DNA of 64,000 nucleotides from Flavobacteriales bacterium (GTDB taxonomy: Bacteria > Bacteroidota > Bacteroidia > Flavobacteriales_D > CALLUQ01). Shown here piece after piece: positions 2,374 to 17,567 of the stretch. The stretch spans positions 1,890,278 through 1,954,277 of the forward strand of contig OY769938.1 in NCBI GenBank assembly GCA_963669295.1, given 5' to 3'. The position numbers and the translations under genes were made by a program. How positions within the stretch are numbered: the first letter of the stretch is position 1; the number at the start of each line of letters is the position of its first letter. The notes beneath the pieces were generated by a model. It was not told the origin of the DNA and did no database searches. It was given only the letters and a program-made list of their open reading frames with translations.

Positions 2374-3420
2374 CTACTTAAAGCTCCAGTCGTATTGGTC
2401 AAGCTCTTGTACACAATGCTTTAATAGATCAATGCTTCCACGAATATCATCCTTATCCGCCATTTCAATAACCTGGTGAATATGTCGGGTTGGAATCGAT
2501 ACTGCTCCGGCAATAGACCCTCCTTCATTCATGCGCTGGATGCCAGCCGTATCAGTGCCTCCAGCAGGTAGGATTTCAGGCTGCCATTTGATGCTGTGCT
2601 TATCGGCCGTTTGCTTCATGTATTTCACCATGCGGTAGTCGCAAATGGTAGAGGAGTCCATAATCTTTATGGCTGTGCCTTCGCCCATTTTGGTCACCAT
2701 TTCATGGCCTTGTGCACCGGGCACATCGTATGCAATGGTGGTATCAAGTCCAAAACCAAAATCGGGCTTAATGGCCAGTGCCGCAACATTGGCACCGCGA
2801 ATGCCTACTTCTTCTTGTACGGTAAACACACCATATACATCGTAGGGGGTATCTTTCATTTCGCGCAGCGCTTCAATGAGAATAAAGACTGAAACGCGGT
2901 TATCGATGGATTTGCAATTCACACAATTTCCCATCTCAATTAGTTCTCGTTGGCGGGTAATAGGGTCGCCTACACTTATGTATTTCTCTACTTCTTCCTG
3001 TTTCATGCCCATGTCGATGAAGTAGTCGGTCGTTTTTTGCACTTTATTCCGCTCTTCAGGTGTCATAACATGAATGGGCTTAGAGCCCATAACACCTATT
3101 AAGTCTTCTTTCCCATGTACAATTACCCGTTGTGCTGTAAGGGTTTTAGGGTCGAACCCTCCTAAAGTATGGAAGCGCACAAAACCATCTTCATCAATAT
3201 GAGTAACAATAAAGCCAATCTCATCCATGTGGGCTCCAATCATCACTTTTTTATCTGCCTTGCCCTTTTTAACGGCAATAACATTGCCCATGGCATCAAT
3301 ACTTACCTCATCTACCAATGGGGTTACTTCGCGCAATACTATTTCACGGATACGTTGCTCAAACCCAGGTGCCCCGGGTACTTCACAAATCTCCTTTAAC
3401 AATTCAACGTTGATCGACAT
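2374..3420 (-). CDS. M42 family metallopeptidase (FrvX/YsdC/TET-type aminopeptidase)
   Basis: 348 aa with 'GAHMDEIGF', 'KSIDNRVS', 'FTVQEEVGIRGA' and 'AVSIPTRHIH', typical of M42. Confidence 0.9.
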   Translation of the reverse strand: MSINVELLKEICEVPGAPGFEQRIREIVLREVTPLVDEVSIDAMGNVIAVKKGKADKKVMIGAHMDEIGFIVTHIDEDGFVRFHTLGGFDPKTLTAQRVIVHGKEDLIGVMGSKPIHVMTPEERNKVQKTTDYFIDMGMKQEEVEKYISVGDPITRQRELIEMGNCVNCKSIDNRVSVFILIEALREMKDTPYDVYGVFTVQEEVGIRGANVAALAIKPDFGFGLDTTIAYDVPGAQGHEMVTKMGEGTAIKIMDSSTICDYRMVKYMKQTADKHSIKWQPEILPAGGTDTAGIQRMNEGGSIAGAVSIPTRHIHQVIEMADKDDIRGSIDLLKHCVQELDQYDWSFK

Positions 3421-3435
3421 AATTATTCTCCTTTA

Positions 3436-4872
3436 TTAACTTACATAACTTAGTTTCAACATATTCGACATCCCTTTTTCTTCAATGGGCATGCTGGCAA
3501 TGTTAATGACCAGATCTTTGGCTTCTACCATACCTTCTTTTTTCAATAAAAACTTAATATCAGCAATGGTATGGTCGGTACTCACCATCCTATCGTAATA
3601 AAAGCACTGCACGCCCCATACCAGGCTCAGGGTGGTCATTACTTCCCTGTTGCTGGTAAAAATGAATATATGTGCTTTGGGACGTTGGCTCGATATTTTA
3701 AACGCGGTATAGCCCGAGTGGGTCATGGTAATGATGGCACGGGCATTTACTCGTTGTGCCAACCGGGTAGCATTAAAGCAAATAGAATCGGTAATGTAAC
3801 GCTCCTGGTTTCTTTCTTCGGGCACTTTATCGTGGTGATAGATGCCTTCAAATGTCTCTACCTCTTCTACAATTTTGGCCATTGCCTCGATTACTTTCAC
3901 CGGATAAGCACCAATTGATGTTTCTCCACTAAGCATTACCGCATCTGCACCATCCATTACCGCATTGGCTACGTCATTTACTTCGGCTCGTGTAGGAGTA
4001 ACATTATTGATCATGCTTTCCATCATTTGCGTAGCAATAATTACAGGTTTCGCTTCGCGCAGGCATTTTTTTACCAACATTTTCTGAATCAGCGGCACAT
4101 TTTGCATGGGTATTTCAACACCCAGGTCACCCCGTGCTACCATCAACGCATCAGCCTCACGAATGATGTCGTCGATTTCCTCAAGCGCTTCCGGCTTTTC
4201 AATTTTAGCAATGATTTTGGCCTTCTTCTTAGCTTTAGAAACCACATGCTTAAGCTCAATTATATCGCGGGCAGAGCGCACAAATGATAGTCCCAACCAA
4301 TCCACCTCGTTCTCCAGTGCAAACTTAAGGTCTGCATGGTCTTTCTCCGTAATGGAGGGCATAGAAATCTTGGTATTGGGAAGGTTAACTCCTTTTTTCG
4401 ATTTCAGCGTTCCACCGTAAATTACTTTTGCTTTTACTTCGTCTTTGCCATTGGTACTCAGCACCTCCAGGTGCAGTTTGCCATCGTCGAGCAAAACAGT
4501 TTCGCCCGCTGCTACATCTTGCGGAAACAGCTCGTAGCTGATATAAATCTTTTCTGGAGTTCCTTCACATGGAGTAGTGGTAATTGTAATTTTACTTCCT
4601 GGCTCCAACATAATGGCGCCATCTTTTACATCTCCTACCCGTAGCTTTGGCCCTTGCAAGTCTGCCAGTATAGCAGTGTAAGTGCCCAGCTCATCGTTAA
4701 TCTCCCGAATGGTTTCTATGGTTTTTTTGTGGTCGTCGTAAGTGCCGTGCGAAAAGTTGAGTCGACAAACATCCACTCCTTTCTTAATCATCTCTATCAG
4801 CACCTCTTTCGAGGCCGAAGCTGGCCCCATGGTGGCCACTATCTTAGTTTTCTTTTCTGTCAGCATTTTCAT
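3436..4872 (-). CDS. pyk: Pyruvate kinase
   Basis: 478 aa with 'TKIVATMGPAS' and 'MVARGDLGVEIP', plus a C-terminal regulatory domain. Confidence 0.97.
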   Translation of the reverse strand: MKMLTEKKTKIVATMGPASASKEVLIEMIKKGVDVCRLNFSHGTYDDHKKTIETIREINDELGTYTAILADLQGPKLRVGDVKDGAIMLEPGSKITITTTPCEGTPEKIYISYELFPQDVAAGETVLLDDGKLHLEVLSTNGKDEVKAKVIYGGTLKSKKGVNLPNTKISMPSITEKDHADLKFALENEVDWLGLSFVRSARDIIELKHVVSKAKKKAKIIAKIEKPEALEEIDDIIREADALMVARGDLGVEIPMQNVPLIQKMLVKKCLREAKPVIIATQMMESMINNVTPTRAEVNDVANAVMDGADAVMLSGETSIGAYPVKVIEAMAKIVEEVETFEGIYHHDKVPEERNQERYITDSICFNATRLAQRVNARAIITMTHSGYTAFKISSQRPKAHIFIFTSNREVMTTLSLVWGVQCFYYDRMVSTDHTIADIKFLLKKEGMVEAKDLVINIASMPIEEKGMSNMLKLSYVS

Positions 4873-13926: not shown

Positions 13927-14856
13927 TTATTCTTCTACCAACAGAATATCGAAATCTACTAGATCAACAAACTGTTGAATACGAGTGTCTATTTCGCTTT
14001 CTGTTAAATTTTCAAGTCGTTCGGTTCCAAACTTCTCTACGCAAAACGATGCCATGGCCGACCCTATGATGATACCACGCTTCATGTTTTCGAAAGAAAT
14101 GTCGCCCGAATGAGCAATATAACCTATAAATCCACCTGCAAAAGTATCGCCAGCACCAGTGGGGTCAAACACTTCTTCTAATGGCAATGCCGGAGCAAAA
14201 AACACTTGCTCGTTATCAAATAGCAATGCTCCATGCTCGCCTTTCTTAATGATCAAATAGCGAGGACCCATTTGTAAAATCTTTCGTGCTGCTTTTACCA
14301 ACGAATACTCCCCTGATAATTGCCTGGCTTCTTCATCATTAATGGTTAATACATCAATCTTCTCCAATACCTTCTTCAAGTCATCAAGCGCAATGTCCAT
14401 CCAAAAGTTCATGGTGTCCAGTACAATGAGCTTTGGGCGGTGTTGTAACCGGTTAATTACACTAAGTTGCACCGATGGGGTAAGGTTTCCCAACATGAGG
14501 TATTCGCAACCCTGGTAAGCTTCAGGAACAACAGGATCAAAGTTTTCCAATACATTTAACTGCGTATCTAATGTATCACGGGTATTCATATCGTTATGAT
14601 ACTTACCCGACCAAAAAAAACTTTTTTCACCTTGCTTTATTTGTACTCCCTCCAGGTCAATTCCCCGACCTTTCATAGTATTCATGGTTGCCTCAGGAAA
14701 GTCTTCTCCCACTACGGAAATCACTTTGGATGCATTGCTGAAATAAGACGCAGACAAAGAGATGTAAGTGGCTGCGCCTCCAATAATTTTATCGGTTTTC
14801 CCGAATGGGGTTTCAATAGCATCAAAAGCCATTGTTCCAACTGTAAGTAAACTCAT
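13927..14856 (-). CDS. PfkB-family carbohydrate/nucleoside kinase
   Basis: 309 aa with the ribokinase-like signature 'DPTGAGDTFAGGFIGY'. Confidence 0.88.
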   Translation of the reverse strand: MSLLTVGTMAFDAIETPFGKTDKIIGGAATYISLSASYFSNASKVISVVGEDFPEATMNTMKGRGIDLEGVQIKQGEKSFFWSGKYHNDMNTRDTLDTQLNVLENFDPVVPEAYQGCEYLMLGNLTPSVQLSVINRLQHRPKLIVLDTMNFWMDIALDDLKKVLEKIDVLTINDEEARQLSGEYSLVKAARKILQMGPRYLIIKKGEHGALLFDNEQVFFAPALPLEEVFDPTGAGDTFAGGFIGYIAHSGDISFENMKRGIIIGSAMASFCVEKFGTERLENLTESEIDTRIQQFVDLVDFDILLVEE

Positions 14857-14947: not shown

Positions 14948-15021
14948 TCCTCAATAGCTCAGTTGGTTAGAGCATCTGACTGTTAATCAGAGGGTCCCTG
15001 GTTCGAGTCCAGGTTGAGGAG
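14948..15021 (+). tRNA. tRNA-Asn (anticodon GTT)
   Basis: 74-nt cloverleaf folded by hand. Acceptor TCCTCAA/TTGAGGA, D arm GCTC-AGTTGGTTA-GAGC, anticodon arm TCTGA-CTGTTAA-TCAGA, T arm CCTGG-TTCGAGT-CCAGG, discriminator G. No CCA is encoded. Confidence 0.95.
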
Positions 15022-15067
15022 CATAATTTTTTCCCCTGTCGTCTCAAGTAGATGGCAGGGGTTTTTT
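15016..15067 (+). repeat. Direct repeat copy 1 (tRNA-Asn 3' end plus terminator), 52 bp
   Basis: GAGGAGCATAATTTTTTCCCCTGTCGTCTCAAGTAGATGGCAGGGGTTTTTT is identical to 15396-15447. Confidence 0.95.
15033..15067 (+). terminator. Rho-independent terminator after tRNA-Asn
   Basis: CCCCTGTC...GGCAGGGG hairpin followed by a T6 run. Confidence 0.8.
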
Positions 15068-15071
15068 ATTT

Positions 15072-15359
15072 ATGGCCTTCTTTGTTTACATCATCTATTC
15101 AAAAAGCATTGATCGGTTTTATGTAGGCGAAACGCCTAATATAGAACAACGGTTAAAGTACCACAATAGCCCTAAGCTAAATACCAACTCGACAAAGTCA
15201 GGCATGCCATGGGAAGTGTTTATGACTATTAGTTGCGATACCAGAACAATTGCAAGAAAGGTGGAAAAACACATAAAGCGTATGAAAAGCAGAAAATACT
15301 ACTACAACCTCAAGCAATACCCTGAATTAGTGAAAAAGGTTATTACTAAATATTCTTAA
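15072..15359 (+). CDS. GIY-YIG nuclease-family protein (small, YhbQ/UPF0213-like)
   Basis: 95 aa. 'FVYIIYSKSIDRFYVGETPNIEQRLKYHN' is a canonical GIY-YIG N-terminus. Confidence 0.85.
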   Translation: MAFFVYIIYSKSIDRFYVGETPNIEQRLKYHNSPKLNTNSTKSGMPWEVFMTISCDTRTIARKVEKHIKRMKSRKYYYNLKQYPELVKKVITKYS

Positions 15360-15364
15360 AATCG

Positions 15365-15401
15365 CTGGTTCGAGTCCCCCCGATAGCTATCGGGGGAGGA
15401 G
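15365..15401 (+). pseudogene. tRNA 3'-end remnant interrupted by a 20-nt perfect palindrome
   Basis: CTGGTTCGAGTCC (15365-15377) equals the tRNA-Asn T arm/loop (14998-15010). It is followed by CCCCCGATAGCTATCGGGGG (15377-15396) and then the acceptor 3' strand AGGAG. No 5' half is present. Confidence 0.7.
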
Positions 15402-15447
15402 CATAATTTTTTCCCCTGTCGTCTCAAGTAGATGGCAGGGGTTTTTT
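15396..15447 (+). repeat. Direct repeat copy 2, 52 bp
   Basis: Identical to 15016-15067 and includes a second copy of the terminator hairpin. Confidence 0.95.
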
Positions 15448-15448
15448 T
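15413..15448 (+). terminator. Rho-independent terminator (duplicate copy)
   Basis: Same hairpin as 15033-15067, followed by a T7 run. Confidence 0.8.
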
Positions 15449-15611
15449 ATGACTAATTTTCTTTAACTGCTTTCCTGATGAACATCATTCTTACCGCTGA
15501 CTTCTTTCATAGGTTCCCCTTGTTGAGGGTTGGAATTTTGTATAACAGCCTTGGTTTTCAATCATTGTAAAAAAAGGCTTGCAGTGCCCGATTTTCTAAT
15601 CACGACAACCA

Positions 15612-17567
15612 ATGGAGCAACAACCCAATACTACTGAATCTAGCCAGGAGGGCACACCCAAAAGGCGTGTTCCTATTAGAACCTATTGGTTTTATCTGGT
15701 GTTATTGCTGTTTATTTTTATCATCCAATTTTTCAGTGGCCAAAGTCCACAAGAAATTACCTGGGGAACTTTTCAGCAAACTATGTTGGAGCAAGGTGAT
15801 GTAGAAAAGTTGATTGTGGTGAATAAAGAAGTGGTAGAAGTATACATTATTCGCGAAGCGCTGAAGAAGGAACAGCACAAAGAGGTAGCTGAAAAACGTT
15901 GGGGAGGAATATCAACAGGGCCACACTACTCCTTTTCCATTGGTTCAGTAGAAGCTTTTGAGCGCAAGGTTGATGCCATCCAGGCCACTCGGGAGCCCGA
16001 GGAATGGTTGGACATCAAGTACGTTACCCGCACCAATTGGATTTCCAACCTGATGGGGTGGCTCATTCCCATCGGCATCATGATTTTTTTATGGATTTTC
16101 ATCATGGGGCGACTGTCACGATCAACCGCTGGCGGGGGCATGGGTTCTATGTTCAATTTTGGTAAGTCAAAAGCCAAACTGGTGAATTATGCCAATGGCG
16201 AGGCTATAACATTTAATGATGTGGCAGGACTGGAAGAGGCTAAGGTTGAAGTAAAAGAAGTAGTTGATTTCTTAAAGTCACCTAAACGCTATACCCAGCT
16301 AGGGGCAAAGATTCCCAAGGGAGTAATCCTTGTAGGCCCCCCAGGAACGGGGAAAACATTACTGGCCAAAGCAGTGGCCGGAGAAGCAGGGGTGCCGGTA
16401 TTTACCATTTCGGGATCTAACTTTGTAGAGATGTTTGTAGGAGTGGGCGCTTCAAGAGTTCGGGACCTATTCAAACAGGCTAAATCAAAGGCCCCTTGCA
16501 TTGTTTTTATTGATGAGATTGATGCCATTGGTCGTGCCCGAGGAAGAAATGTTGCTTTTGGTGCCAACGATGAGCGCGAAAACACCCTCAATCAACTGCT
16601 GAGTGAAATGGATGGTTTTGGCACCAACACTGGGGTGATTGTACTTGCCGCTACCAACAGGGCCGATATTCTGGACAAAGCACTTTTGCGCCCTGGTAGA
16701 TTCGACCGTCATATATATCTTGAGCTACCCAACCTTATTGAACGTCGCGCCATCTTTAAAGTACACACCCGCAAGCTGAAGATGCAAACCGATATTGACC
16801 TGAACTATCTGTCAACTCAAACACCAGGGTTTTCGGGTGCCGACATTGCCAACGTTTGCAACGAGGCTGCGCTTATTGCGGCACGCCACAAAAAAGAGTT
16901 GATTGAATCACGTGATTTCATAGCTGCTATCGATCGGGTGGTCGCTGGACTGGAACGCAAAAGCAAGATTATTTCAAAAGAAGAACGGGAAATTATCGCT
17001 CACCATGAAGCAGGCCATGCTATAGCGAGCTGGTTCTTAAAGCATGCTGCACCATTAGTAAAAGTGACCATCATTCCTCGAGGCAAGTCATTGGGAGCCG
17101 CCTGGTACCTGCCCGAAGAACGGCAAATCAAAACCAAACAACAGTTTATGGATGAGTTGTGCGTAACTCTTGGTGGTCGCGCAGCTGAAGAACTCCTATT
17201 TGGGGAGGTATCATCGGGAGCGCTTGATGATTTGGAAAAAGTGACCAAACAAGCATATGCCATGATCGCCTTGTTAGGGTTCAACGAAAAAATTGGCAAC
17301 ATCAGCTTCTACGACTCTTCTGGTACTCAAGAAGGTTCTTTGCACAAACCATATAGTGAGGCCACGGGTAAGATGATTGATGAAGAAGTAAGAGGGCTGG
17401 TAGAAAAAGTCTATACACGCACTCTTCTATTGCTTCGTGATCACCGTTCCGAGCTAGAGCAACTAGCCAAATTGCTATTGGAACATGAAACCGTACACCA
17501 GGCTCAATTAGAGCAATTGCTCGGTGCCCGAAAGTTTAATATTACAACTGTTGAAAACCCCACTTAG
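15612..17567 (+). CDS. ftsH: ATP-dependent zinc metalloprotease FtsH
   Basis: 651 aa with two N-terminal TM segments, Walker A 'GPPGTGKT', the AAA SRH, and the 'HEAGHA' zinc site. Confidence 0.97.

Follow-up and report, generated by a model that had tools for sequence, protein, structure and literature searches.

REP/REPIN-RAYT (TnpA-REP) systems link a nuclease gene, present in one or a few copies, to a short palindromic hairpin that is also dispersed in the genome. They persist for long periods, are mostly inherited vertically and keep their enzyme under purifying selection; to our knowledge, REPs do not make partial tRNA duplications. Free-standing GIY-YIG genes are found between conserved genes of T4-like phages, where the encoded Seg proteins (SegB in a tRNA cluster) spread by cleavage and repair, and Slx1 cuts branched and stem-loop DNA. 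Islands that target tRNA genes are flanked by direct repeats of the tRNA 3' end, through which an intact tRNA is preserved, integron cassettes are promoterless units with a single open reading frame (ORF) and a palindromic site that occur in arrays, and the Rickettsia palindromic elements are short palindromes tolerated in frame inside protein genes. We know of no report that links UPF0213 (YhbQ-like) proteins to tRNA genes or hairpins. For bacterial members of the Slx1/UPF0213 branch, a role in RNA metabolism is speculative only (PMC1564403). REP insertions also occur in tRNA synthetase genes (PMC3733652). In fungal mitochondria, mobile endonuclease ORFs (mORFs) have been described in Allomyces atp6 and in Glomus atp6, atp9 (GIY-YIG), cox2 and nad3 (PMC3630166). 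An mORF is a free-standing endonuclease ORF at the end of a conserved gene, of which the end is present twice; the gene itself is kept intact, the displaced pseudo-end lies beyond the ORF, and transcription of the host gene is used (PMC3630166). Here, we describe a cassette that consists of a stand-alone GIY-YIG nuclease of ~95 amino acids (aa) from the Slx1/UPF0213 branch, a partial duplicate of the neighbouring tRNA gene and an 18-nucleotide (nt) hairpin that interrupts this duplicate. It was found in a 64,000-nt stretch of the chromosome of a Flavobacteriales bacterium (contig OY769938.1, positions 1,890,278 to 1,954,277), which we call the window.

The host gene of the cassette is an intact tRNA-Asn(GTT) gene on the plus strand (14948-15021/15022; ARAGORN; Rfam RF00005, 72.3 bits), whose encoded sequence lacks CCA. 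A repeat search revealed two direct repeats on the same strand, 15016-15067 and 15396-15447, that are identical over 52/52 nt and have a spacing of 380 nt. In order, the repeat contains GAGGAG (the last 6 nt of the tRNA), CATAATTTTTT, the hairpin CCCCTGTCGTCTCAAGTAGATGGCAGGGG and a T-run; in the first copy, the G+C-rich terminator hairpin of 29 nt occupies 15033-15061 (plus strand) and the T-run 15062-15067 (plus strand). A perfect repeat of this length is far beyond chance. The second copy, with the same acceptor 3' end and terminator, closes the cassette and is probably the terminator of the ORF transcript. Between the two copies, the ORF list contains a 95-aa GIY-YIG nuclease ORF (15072-15359, plus strand; Pfam PF01541, E-value 5.6e-14), of which the ATG is located only 4 nt past the T-run. 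It is followed by a truncated tRNA-Asn copy (15362-15377, plus strand) that comprises the 5' strand of the T-stem and the T-loop (TCGCTGGTTCGAGTCC), corresponds to tRNA positions 48-63 and matches 14995-15010 at 15/16 positions. Next to it, the sequence contains the strand-neutral 18-nt palindrome CCCCGATAGCTATCGGGG (15378-15395). Relative to the intact tRNA-Asn, AGGTT is swapped for this 18-mer, and with the flanking C and G the palindrome extends to a perfect 20 nt, CCCCCGATAGCTATCGGGGG (15377-15396). An earlier reading of the window, made from the sequence only, had placed the tRNA, the repeats, the ORF, the T-arm copy and the palindrome correctly; the T-arm copy, which it took to be 13 nt long, is indeed present but spans 16 nt.

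The 16-nt core of the palindrome occurs a single time in the window, even when up to 3 mismatches are allowed (chance expectation 0.06 matches), and besides this hairpin the G+C-rich palindromes in the window are ordinary terminators only. The predicted RNA fold of 15356-15452 has a free energy of -39.8 kcal/mol (z -4.3), with the hairpin as a stable stem-loop just ahead of the terminator. In assemblies of public runs, the depth of the 52-mer was ~2x that of the flanks and the depth of the cassette equalled that of the flanks, so the cassette is real and single-copy in those assemblies. Other Rfam matches in the region (anti-hemB, Plastid-ycf2) were at chance level and stem from the shape of a hairpin plus terminator; the Burkholderia anti-hemB small RNA, matched at 14995-15069 and 15375-15450, reached 24 bits against a gathering score of 49.5, which is meaningless.

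The protein of the window scores 52.6 bits against PF01541 (cut-off 22.6). Sequence and an AlphaFold2 (AF2) model agree with the defining traits of the GIY-YIG superfamily: GIY and YIG motifs separated by 10-11 residues, a conserved arginine, a catalytic glutamate and a three-stranded beta-sheet with flanking helices. Residues Y6, Y17, G19, R27, H31 and E65 are invariant in 24 family sequences, as are K69-S73, a basic motif IK[RK]MKS; the 95-aa protein is a putative nuclease. The AF2 model (mean predicted local distance difference test score 95.7) consists of the catalytic domain and two short C-terminal helices. Its top Foldseek matches are UPF0213 and Slx1 (template modelling score 0.61, root-mean-square deviation about 2.1 Å), with the I-TevI catalytic domain and the UvrC N-terminal domain lower. 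Profile matches over residues 2-74 were obtained to the UPF0213 structures 1zg2 (E-value 1.9e-6) and 1ywl (2.9e-5), next to a profile match to Slx1 (8.6e-5). By profile and predicted fold, the closest relatives are thus the structure-specific nucleases of the Slx1/UPF0213 group, with which the family also shares its organization as a small, stand-alone catalytic domain.

The family appears to be a distinct subfamily. Its profile similarity to UPF0213 covers residues 2-74, and a family-specific IKRMKSRK motif, an invariant E-x-[HFY]-IK-[RK]-MKS motif and the two extra C-terminal helices set it apart. Unlike Slx1, the family has no Slx4-like partner and no RING domain. PADLOC and NCBIfam searches with the window protein returned no defence-system match and no equivalog match, and neither Pfam nor the AF2 model indicates a DNA-binding module for a long target in the 95 aa. 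TIGR01453, a model for group I intron endonucleases, is matched only weakly (E-value 1.8e-4), below its cut-off.

In a word-indexed protein search, all relatives showed ≤ 63% identity and a length of ~95 aa, and every named one originated from Bacteroidota, the only phylum in which the family has been seen so far. A profile search of 1.84 billion cluster representatives yielded 1,561 clusters (E-value ≤ 1e-10); as these are clusters at 50% identity, the family comprises at least 1,561 of them. Only one partial match was found in viral contigs, and a phage-borne origin was ruled out on that basis. The ratio of nonsynonymous to synonymous substitution rates (dN/dS) between family orthologues is 0.08-0.29, indicating purifying selection and hence a protein that is kept functional.

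The hairpin of the window is shared by the whole family. Its consensus is YCCCGATAGCTATCGGGR (YCCCGA-TAGCTA-TCGGGR), and it lies within 200 nt of the ORF in 92/97 complete ORFs, while most of the five exceptions carry a mutated, degenerate or half hairpin. It is found on one side of the ORF only, inside the truncated tRNA copy. The 12 nt that flank it on each side have 0-2 mismatches to the local intact tRNA, so these flanks derive from the local tRNA, in which 3-7 nt have given way to the hairpin. The length of the element is exactly 18 nt: Watson-Crick pairs are formed in 111/116 cases at each of its two outer positions, with covariation of the outermost pair (T-A in 60, C-G in 45), and the next base outwards pairs no more often than by chance. 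In rare variants, the CCCGA/TCGGG stem is retained around a non-palindromic centre of 4-5 nt. This favours a folded hairpin, formed by single-stranded DNA, a cruciform or RNA, over a duplex site with fixed spacing.

Within the tRNA copy, the position of the hairpin varies. In tRNA coordinates, it occupies the D-loop (14/18 in Asn, 22/27 in Arg), the anticodon loop (35/41 in Met), the variable region (43-45/51) or the T-arm (51-52/57-58, 56-57/61-63 and 59/63, and 62/70 in the window). At two loci, L032 and L056, it is located in terminator loops. The palindrome is a hallmark of the family and no local accident, which overturns the initial view of it as a replacement of the T-stem at this one locus. 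A second, unrelated palindrome, GCCTGCCTGCCGnCnGGCAGG, was observed in the D-arm of tRNA-Arg pseudo-copies that already bear the family hairpin (L005:2514-2534, L019:2919-2939 and L047:859-879; also L118:6769-6789), and palindromes of more than one kind seem to accumulate in pseudo-tRNAs. In L045 (about 3310-4800), an insertion sequence with a 443-aa transposase-like ORF (3324-4655, minus strand) and terminal inverted repeats CATTAGCGTTAAGCT splits one hairpin and is flanked by a 12-bp target duplication, CGATAGCTATCG; the hairpin can therefore itself be a target of insertion sequences.

A scan of genome contigs with one genome per species resulted in at least 530 relatives, of which the best 80 loci (L001-L080) were analysed. 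An intact tRNA gene on the same strand is present within 250 nt of the ORF in 60 of the 76 loci with a complete ORF, and 61/62 adjacent tRNAs are co-oriented with the ORF. The association recurs at at least six tRNA species: the host tRNAs are Asn(GTT), Arg(CCT), Met(CAT), Phe(GAA), Thr(TGT), Leu(CAA) and Leu(TAA). Most loci without a nearby intact tRNA are cut by a contig end or have a truncated tRNA in that place. In draft and metagenome assemblies, many of the loci lie at the end of a contig or close to it; this would be expected if repeated units interrupted assembly at tRNA genes.

Two architectures can be distinguished. In type I, found in the window and at Asn, Met, Phe, Thr and Leu tRNA genes, an intact tRNA and its terminator are followed by the ORF and then by a tRNA 3' fragment with the same terminator. 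In type II, found in Flavobacteriaceae at Arg(CCT) and Asn tRNA genes, the promoter and leader of the tRNA, together with a 5' fragment, precede the ORF, and the intact tRNA begins only 4-25 nt past its stop codon. In 33 type I loci, the repeated segment of tRNA end plus terminator has a length of 9-175 nt. Many of these loci have two copies with 100% identity (51/51, 60/60, 73/73 and 75/75, next to 52/52 in the window), and in others the copies have diverged, with identities in the alignment as low as 73%. Since the terminators differ between species without conservation, each lineage has either duplicated the segment recently or keeps homogenizing it. The tRNA junction proximal to the ORF falls at positions 21-55 in type I and 24-52 in type II, and a fixed insertion point in the tRNA is ruled out by this spread. 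Only 8-34 nt of tRNA sequence lie between the ORF and the hairpin. The sequence-only reading had proposed a minimal GIY-YIG element tied to tRNA genes, with the tRNA end duplicated and an intact tRNA left in place; the relatives support this, except that the landing site is not confined to the tRNA 3' end or terminator, as the cassettes of Flavobacteriaceae sit upstream, where promoter and 5' part of the tRNA are duplicated.

The cassette appears to use the expression signals of the tRNA gene and to have none of its own, judging from its layout. With only 4 nt between the T-run and the start codon, the ORF of the window cannot have its own promoter, and its expression must come from terminator read-through. 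In type II loci at tRNA-Asn, the ORF lies between the tRNA promoter, which has a -7 box of the TAnnTTTG type established as consensus in Bacteroidota, and the tRNA, so that transcribing the tRNA means transcribing the ORF as well. The reading frame also borrows from its surroundings: in several Asn loci the last codons and the stop of the ORF come from a remnant of the anticodon loop (cTGTTAAtc), and elsewhere the stop falls in the hairpin (PGSPR* = CCTGGTTCCCCCCGATAG). Gene callers often lengthen family ORFs through tRNA-derived sequence or join tandem copies, which results in N-terminal extensions of ~30-40 aa, proteins with two matched stretches and matches of 120-140 aa (over-extended or fused calls include P0180, P0212, P0001, P0003, P0025 and P0032). 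The C-terminal tails PGSPR, GSSR and IPTRRD occur in such calls, and PGSPR was traced to hairpin DNA.

The cassette is subject to amplification and decay. Two or more copies are present in 18 loci. Bacteroidetes bacterium UKL13-3 (L001) carries 8.1 tandem units with a period of 410 bp and 98% identity, all with intact ORFs, and a relative with a 93% identical protein has one copy. Within arrays, copies differ by 0-42 nt. Truncated ORFs were found in L019, L037, L057, L064 and L065. Moreover, ORF-less arrays of hairpin-disrupted tRNA-Met or tRNA-Asn pseudo-copies lie on either side of intact tRNAs in L057 (2050-2870; at least 7 units of 129 bp) and L073 (2380-4500). In L073, the hairpin was also seen in place of terminator stems (AAAAG-TCCCGATAACTATCGGGG-CTTTTTT). 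Gain and loss of units is visible in a near-identical genome pair, L026 and L029, with 99% identical ORFs: the two differ by one extra 99-nt ORF-less unit, by a nested change in a hairpin and by a deletion of 23 nt, located between TATCG repeats, that takes away half a hairpin. Copy numbers of 1 to at least 8 among relatives disagree with a gene that is single-copy everywhere, and the arrays consist of cassette units and not of ancestral tRNA genes, so the suggestion of a collapsed tandem tRNA array is not supported.

Orthologous loci were identified using the flanking PfkB-family kinase gene (13927-14856, minus strand; ORF list, homologues with PF00294) as anchor. The closest relative found at the PfkB/tRNA-Asn locus, L081 (84% PfkB identity), has an identical tRNA with its own terminator and no cassette. 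Its downstream gene differs from that of the window, where an FtsH-like gene follows the element (15612-17567, plus strand; AAA+ and zinc-protease motifs in the translation only). With this divergence and this different neighbour, L081 is not a clean empty allele. L085 (77%) carries the cassette and a decayed unit. L083 (81%) carries an unrelated UPF0213-type GIY-YIG gene instead (113 aa, 3156-3497, minus strand in the locus), downstream of tRNA-Asn and without hairpin; small GIY-YIG genes from more than a single subfamily may favour the position beside tRNA-Asn.

The hairpin is also found away from cassettes. An exact search of metagenome contigs with CCCCGATAGCTATCGGGG returned at least 120 stretches, of which 88 sites in 80 loci were analysed; the contigs with sampled hairpins have a G+C content of 35-48%. 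As 8/88 sites are near a family ORF and 12/88 near an intact tRNA, the hairpin also exists as solitary copies. The GIY-YIG family itself is the sole protein family that recurs beside the sampled sites. Hairpins lie inside long ORFs at 17/88 sites. In the leucyl-tRNA synthetase (LeuRS) genes of L125, L127 and L130, an in-frame hairpin adds PIAIG to the N-terminal region, just before KPKYYVLDMFPYPSG (in L130, the hairpin at 2031-2048 lies within the ORF 1877-2512). Like the Rickettsia elements and REPs, the family hairpin is thus present in frame in a protein gene; unlike them, it measures only 18 nt, has a different sequence and is linked to tRNA fragments and a GIY-YIG gene. Of the hairpin sites, 9/82 are flanked by direct repeats of ≥ 10 nt, compared to 0.5-1.3% in controls, a small-scale version of the duplications at tRNA genes. 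Wide dispersal of the hairpin near cassettes was considered and rejected: the loose motif CCGA-N2-8-TCGG occurs away from ORFs at about the chance rate estimated from base frequencies. Outside cassettes and arrays, the strict 14-mer is hardly ever seen.

We favour, with about as much confidence as doubt, a persistent and mostly vertically inherited selfish element that consists of the nuclease and the hairpin, lives on tRNA expression signals and drives local duplication. The nuclease would recognize the hairpin as folded DNA, either a cruciform or a single strand, as expected from the structure specificity of Slx1-like enzymes. For the repair of breaks or nicks at the hairpin, the homologous tRNA copy next to it or the sister chromosome could then serve as template, which would homogenize the repeats (cf. 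52/52 here), and unequal recombination or slippage would expand and contract the arrays. Occasionally, the 18-mer or the ORF may be copied into new structured DNA. Selection would remove hairpins that land in the sole intact tRNA, which would account for the consistent presence of the hairpin in the redundant copy and never in the intact one.

Several observations weigh against this reading. The partnership between nuclease and hairpin is putative, an association and no more. Only about 9% of the sampled exact hairpins lie near a family ORF, and the hairpin occurs once in the 64-kb window. Most solitary hairpins lie outside pre-existing hairpins: about 4/84 unbiased metagenome sites are within a stem of ≥ 6 bp, a small excess over the 1% in controls. 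The idea that the hairpin always enters existing hairpin loops, suggested by the tRNA loops and three terminator-loop cases, therefore fails as a general rule. Nearest-neighbour ORFs share their tRNA site and host family in 36 cases versus 11 (36/47), and synonymous divergence (dS) is saturated between genera, from which it follows that movement between sites is rare; the lineages would appear to stay long at one tRNA, with occasional jumps. Mobility is deduced from comparative structure, and both mobility and the proposed substrate of the nuclease are putative. Finally, a domesticated host gene would be just as compatible with long vertical inheritance under purifying selection.

Such a domesticated gene is the alternative that survives best, although we consider it unlikely. 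The protein would have a cellular role at tRNA loci, either in tRNA or RNA metabolism or in repair at highly transcribed, structure-prone tRNA genes. The gene would be co-transcribed with the tRNA, the hairpin would be a regulatory or binding site on the mRNA (in the 5' untranslated region in type II and the 3' untranslated region in type I), and duplications and arrays would be side effects. The low dN/dS, the fidelity to one site type of 36/47 nearest neighbours, the strict co-orientation with its co-transcription geometry and the virtual absence of the family from viral contigs all agree with this, as does the proposal of an RNA-metabolism role for prokaryotic Slx1-like proteins, based on a fusion to a TrmH-like methyltransferase (PMC1564403). 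A gene with a cellular role is harder to reconcile with the absence of the cassette at the same tRNA in the closest relative found, with copy numbers that range from 1 to at least 8 among relatives with 93% identical proteins, and with decayed copies and ORF-less hairpin arrays. Furthermore, no conserved partner genes accompany the family, and the hairpin occurs in solitary form, even in frame in LeuRS, unlike a regulatory element of an untranslated region.

A classical free-standing homing endonuclease is still less probable. Its target would be a specific sequence in the 3' end, or close to it, of tRNA alleles that lack the cassette; after the cut, repair from a cassette-bearing donor would bring in the ORF with a replacement tRNA end and leave the native end as a downstream pseudo-copy. 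The presence and absence of the cassette beside a conserved gene at the orthologous locus among relatives, and the weak TIGR01453 match below cut-off, are in line with this explanation, and the layout corresponds to that of the mORFs, with an inserted gene end, the ORF and the native end (PMC3630166). The footprint of gene end, ORF and displaced gene end is indeed shared, but the cassette differs from mORFs in its location on a bacterial chromosome, its tRNA gene target and its bare 95-aa catalytic domain, in an 18-nt hairpin that interrupts the pseudo-copy, in tandem amplification and in the mirror-image 5' arrangement. The two copies are often identical, and not one foreign and one native. 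Several features speak against homing itself: a catalytic domain only, devoid of a DNA-binding module, is ill-suited to a long asymmetric site, and an intact tRNA and terminator identical to the duplicate (52/52 here, 100% in many loci) leave the cassette allele without immunity. Likewise, the ORF-proximal junction varies over positions 21-55, type II cassettes lie on the 5' side, and the conserved hairpin is left unexplained. The Seg genes offer a similar picture, as they are free-standing GIY-YIG genes located between conserved genes, tRNA genes among them; their products of ≥ 200 aa with DNA-binding domains are phage-borne, in contrast to the family, and the genes lack a hairpin, target duplication and arrays. 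The interpretation of the cassette as a homing or integration scar, given by the sequence-only reading, therefore fits poorly, given the bare catalytic domain and the lack of an immune allele and an integrase.

A passive structure, in which a tandem tRNA duplication trapped a GIY-YIG gene or an integrase acted in trans at an attachment site and the palindrome is a chance or local feature, is effectively excluded and scarcely credible: tandem duplications are common and tRNA 3'-end repeats are typical of integrase islands, but the arrangement of ORF, hairpin and tRNA fragment recurs in about 80 independent loci across the phylum, no integrase is present in or beside the 380-bp unit according to the ORF list (its neighbours are the PfkB kinase and FtsH-like genes), and the repeat runs through the terminator, or in type II covers the promoter and 5' end instead.

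Returning to the proposed selfish nuclease-plus-hairpin element, it fails one or more defining tests of homing endonuclease genes, REP/RAYT, tRNA islands and integrons. In contrast to tRNA islands, no tyrosine integrase accompanies the cassette (none was seen in the family loci) and the repeats include a terminator or promoter. In contrast to integron cassettes, all family cassettes encode the same protein, and the hairpin of 18 nt is far below the length of attC and lies in tRNA-derived sequence. The resemblance to REP/RAYT includes the pairing of a nuclease with a palindrome and the long vertical persistence. The enzymes are different, as the family enzyme is of the GIY-YIG type and RAYT is an HUH/Y1 (IS200/IS605-like) transposase, and so are the hairpins, which in the family are one-sided, lie inside a tRNA fragment and appear to be low in copy number (one in the 64-kb window). 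Searches of PubMed Central and bioRxiv for the hairpin, GIY-YIG with tRNA or Bacteroidetes, UPF0213/YhbQ and REP surveys gave no description of the system, and the family is apparently undescribed. A bolder and more doubtful proposal, which we put forward tentatively, is that the GIY-YIG protein and its hairpin represent an unrecognized class of bacterial elements, the GIY-YIG counterpart of REPIN/RAYT. The Slx1-like nuclease would then spread a minimal palindrome into tRNA genes, terminators and, in frame, coding sequences, and this spread would create the partial tandem tRNA duplications that house and amplify the nuclease gene.

If the reading as a selfish element is right, a large part of the annotations of 'GIY-YIG nuclease family protein' in Bacteroidota (at least 1,561 clusters at 50% identity) would refer to a coherent selfish system that remodels tRNA loci and not to housekeeping proteins. 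It would be the first analogue on bacterial chromosomes of the mitochondrial mobile endonuclease ORFs and, besides REP/RAYT, a second and mechanistically different partnership between a nuclease and a palindrome. It would also explain the pseudo-tRNA arrays, the contig breaks at tRNA genes and the over-extended or fused gene calls in Bacteroidota. With a very small nuclease and a defined 18-nt candidate substrate, the role of stand-alone UPF0213/Slx1-like proteins would become testable.

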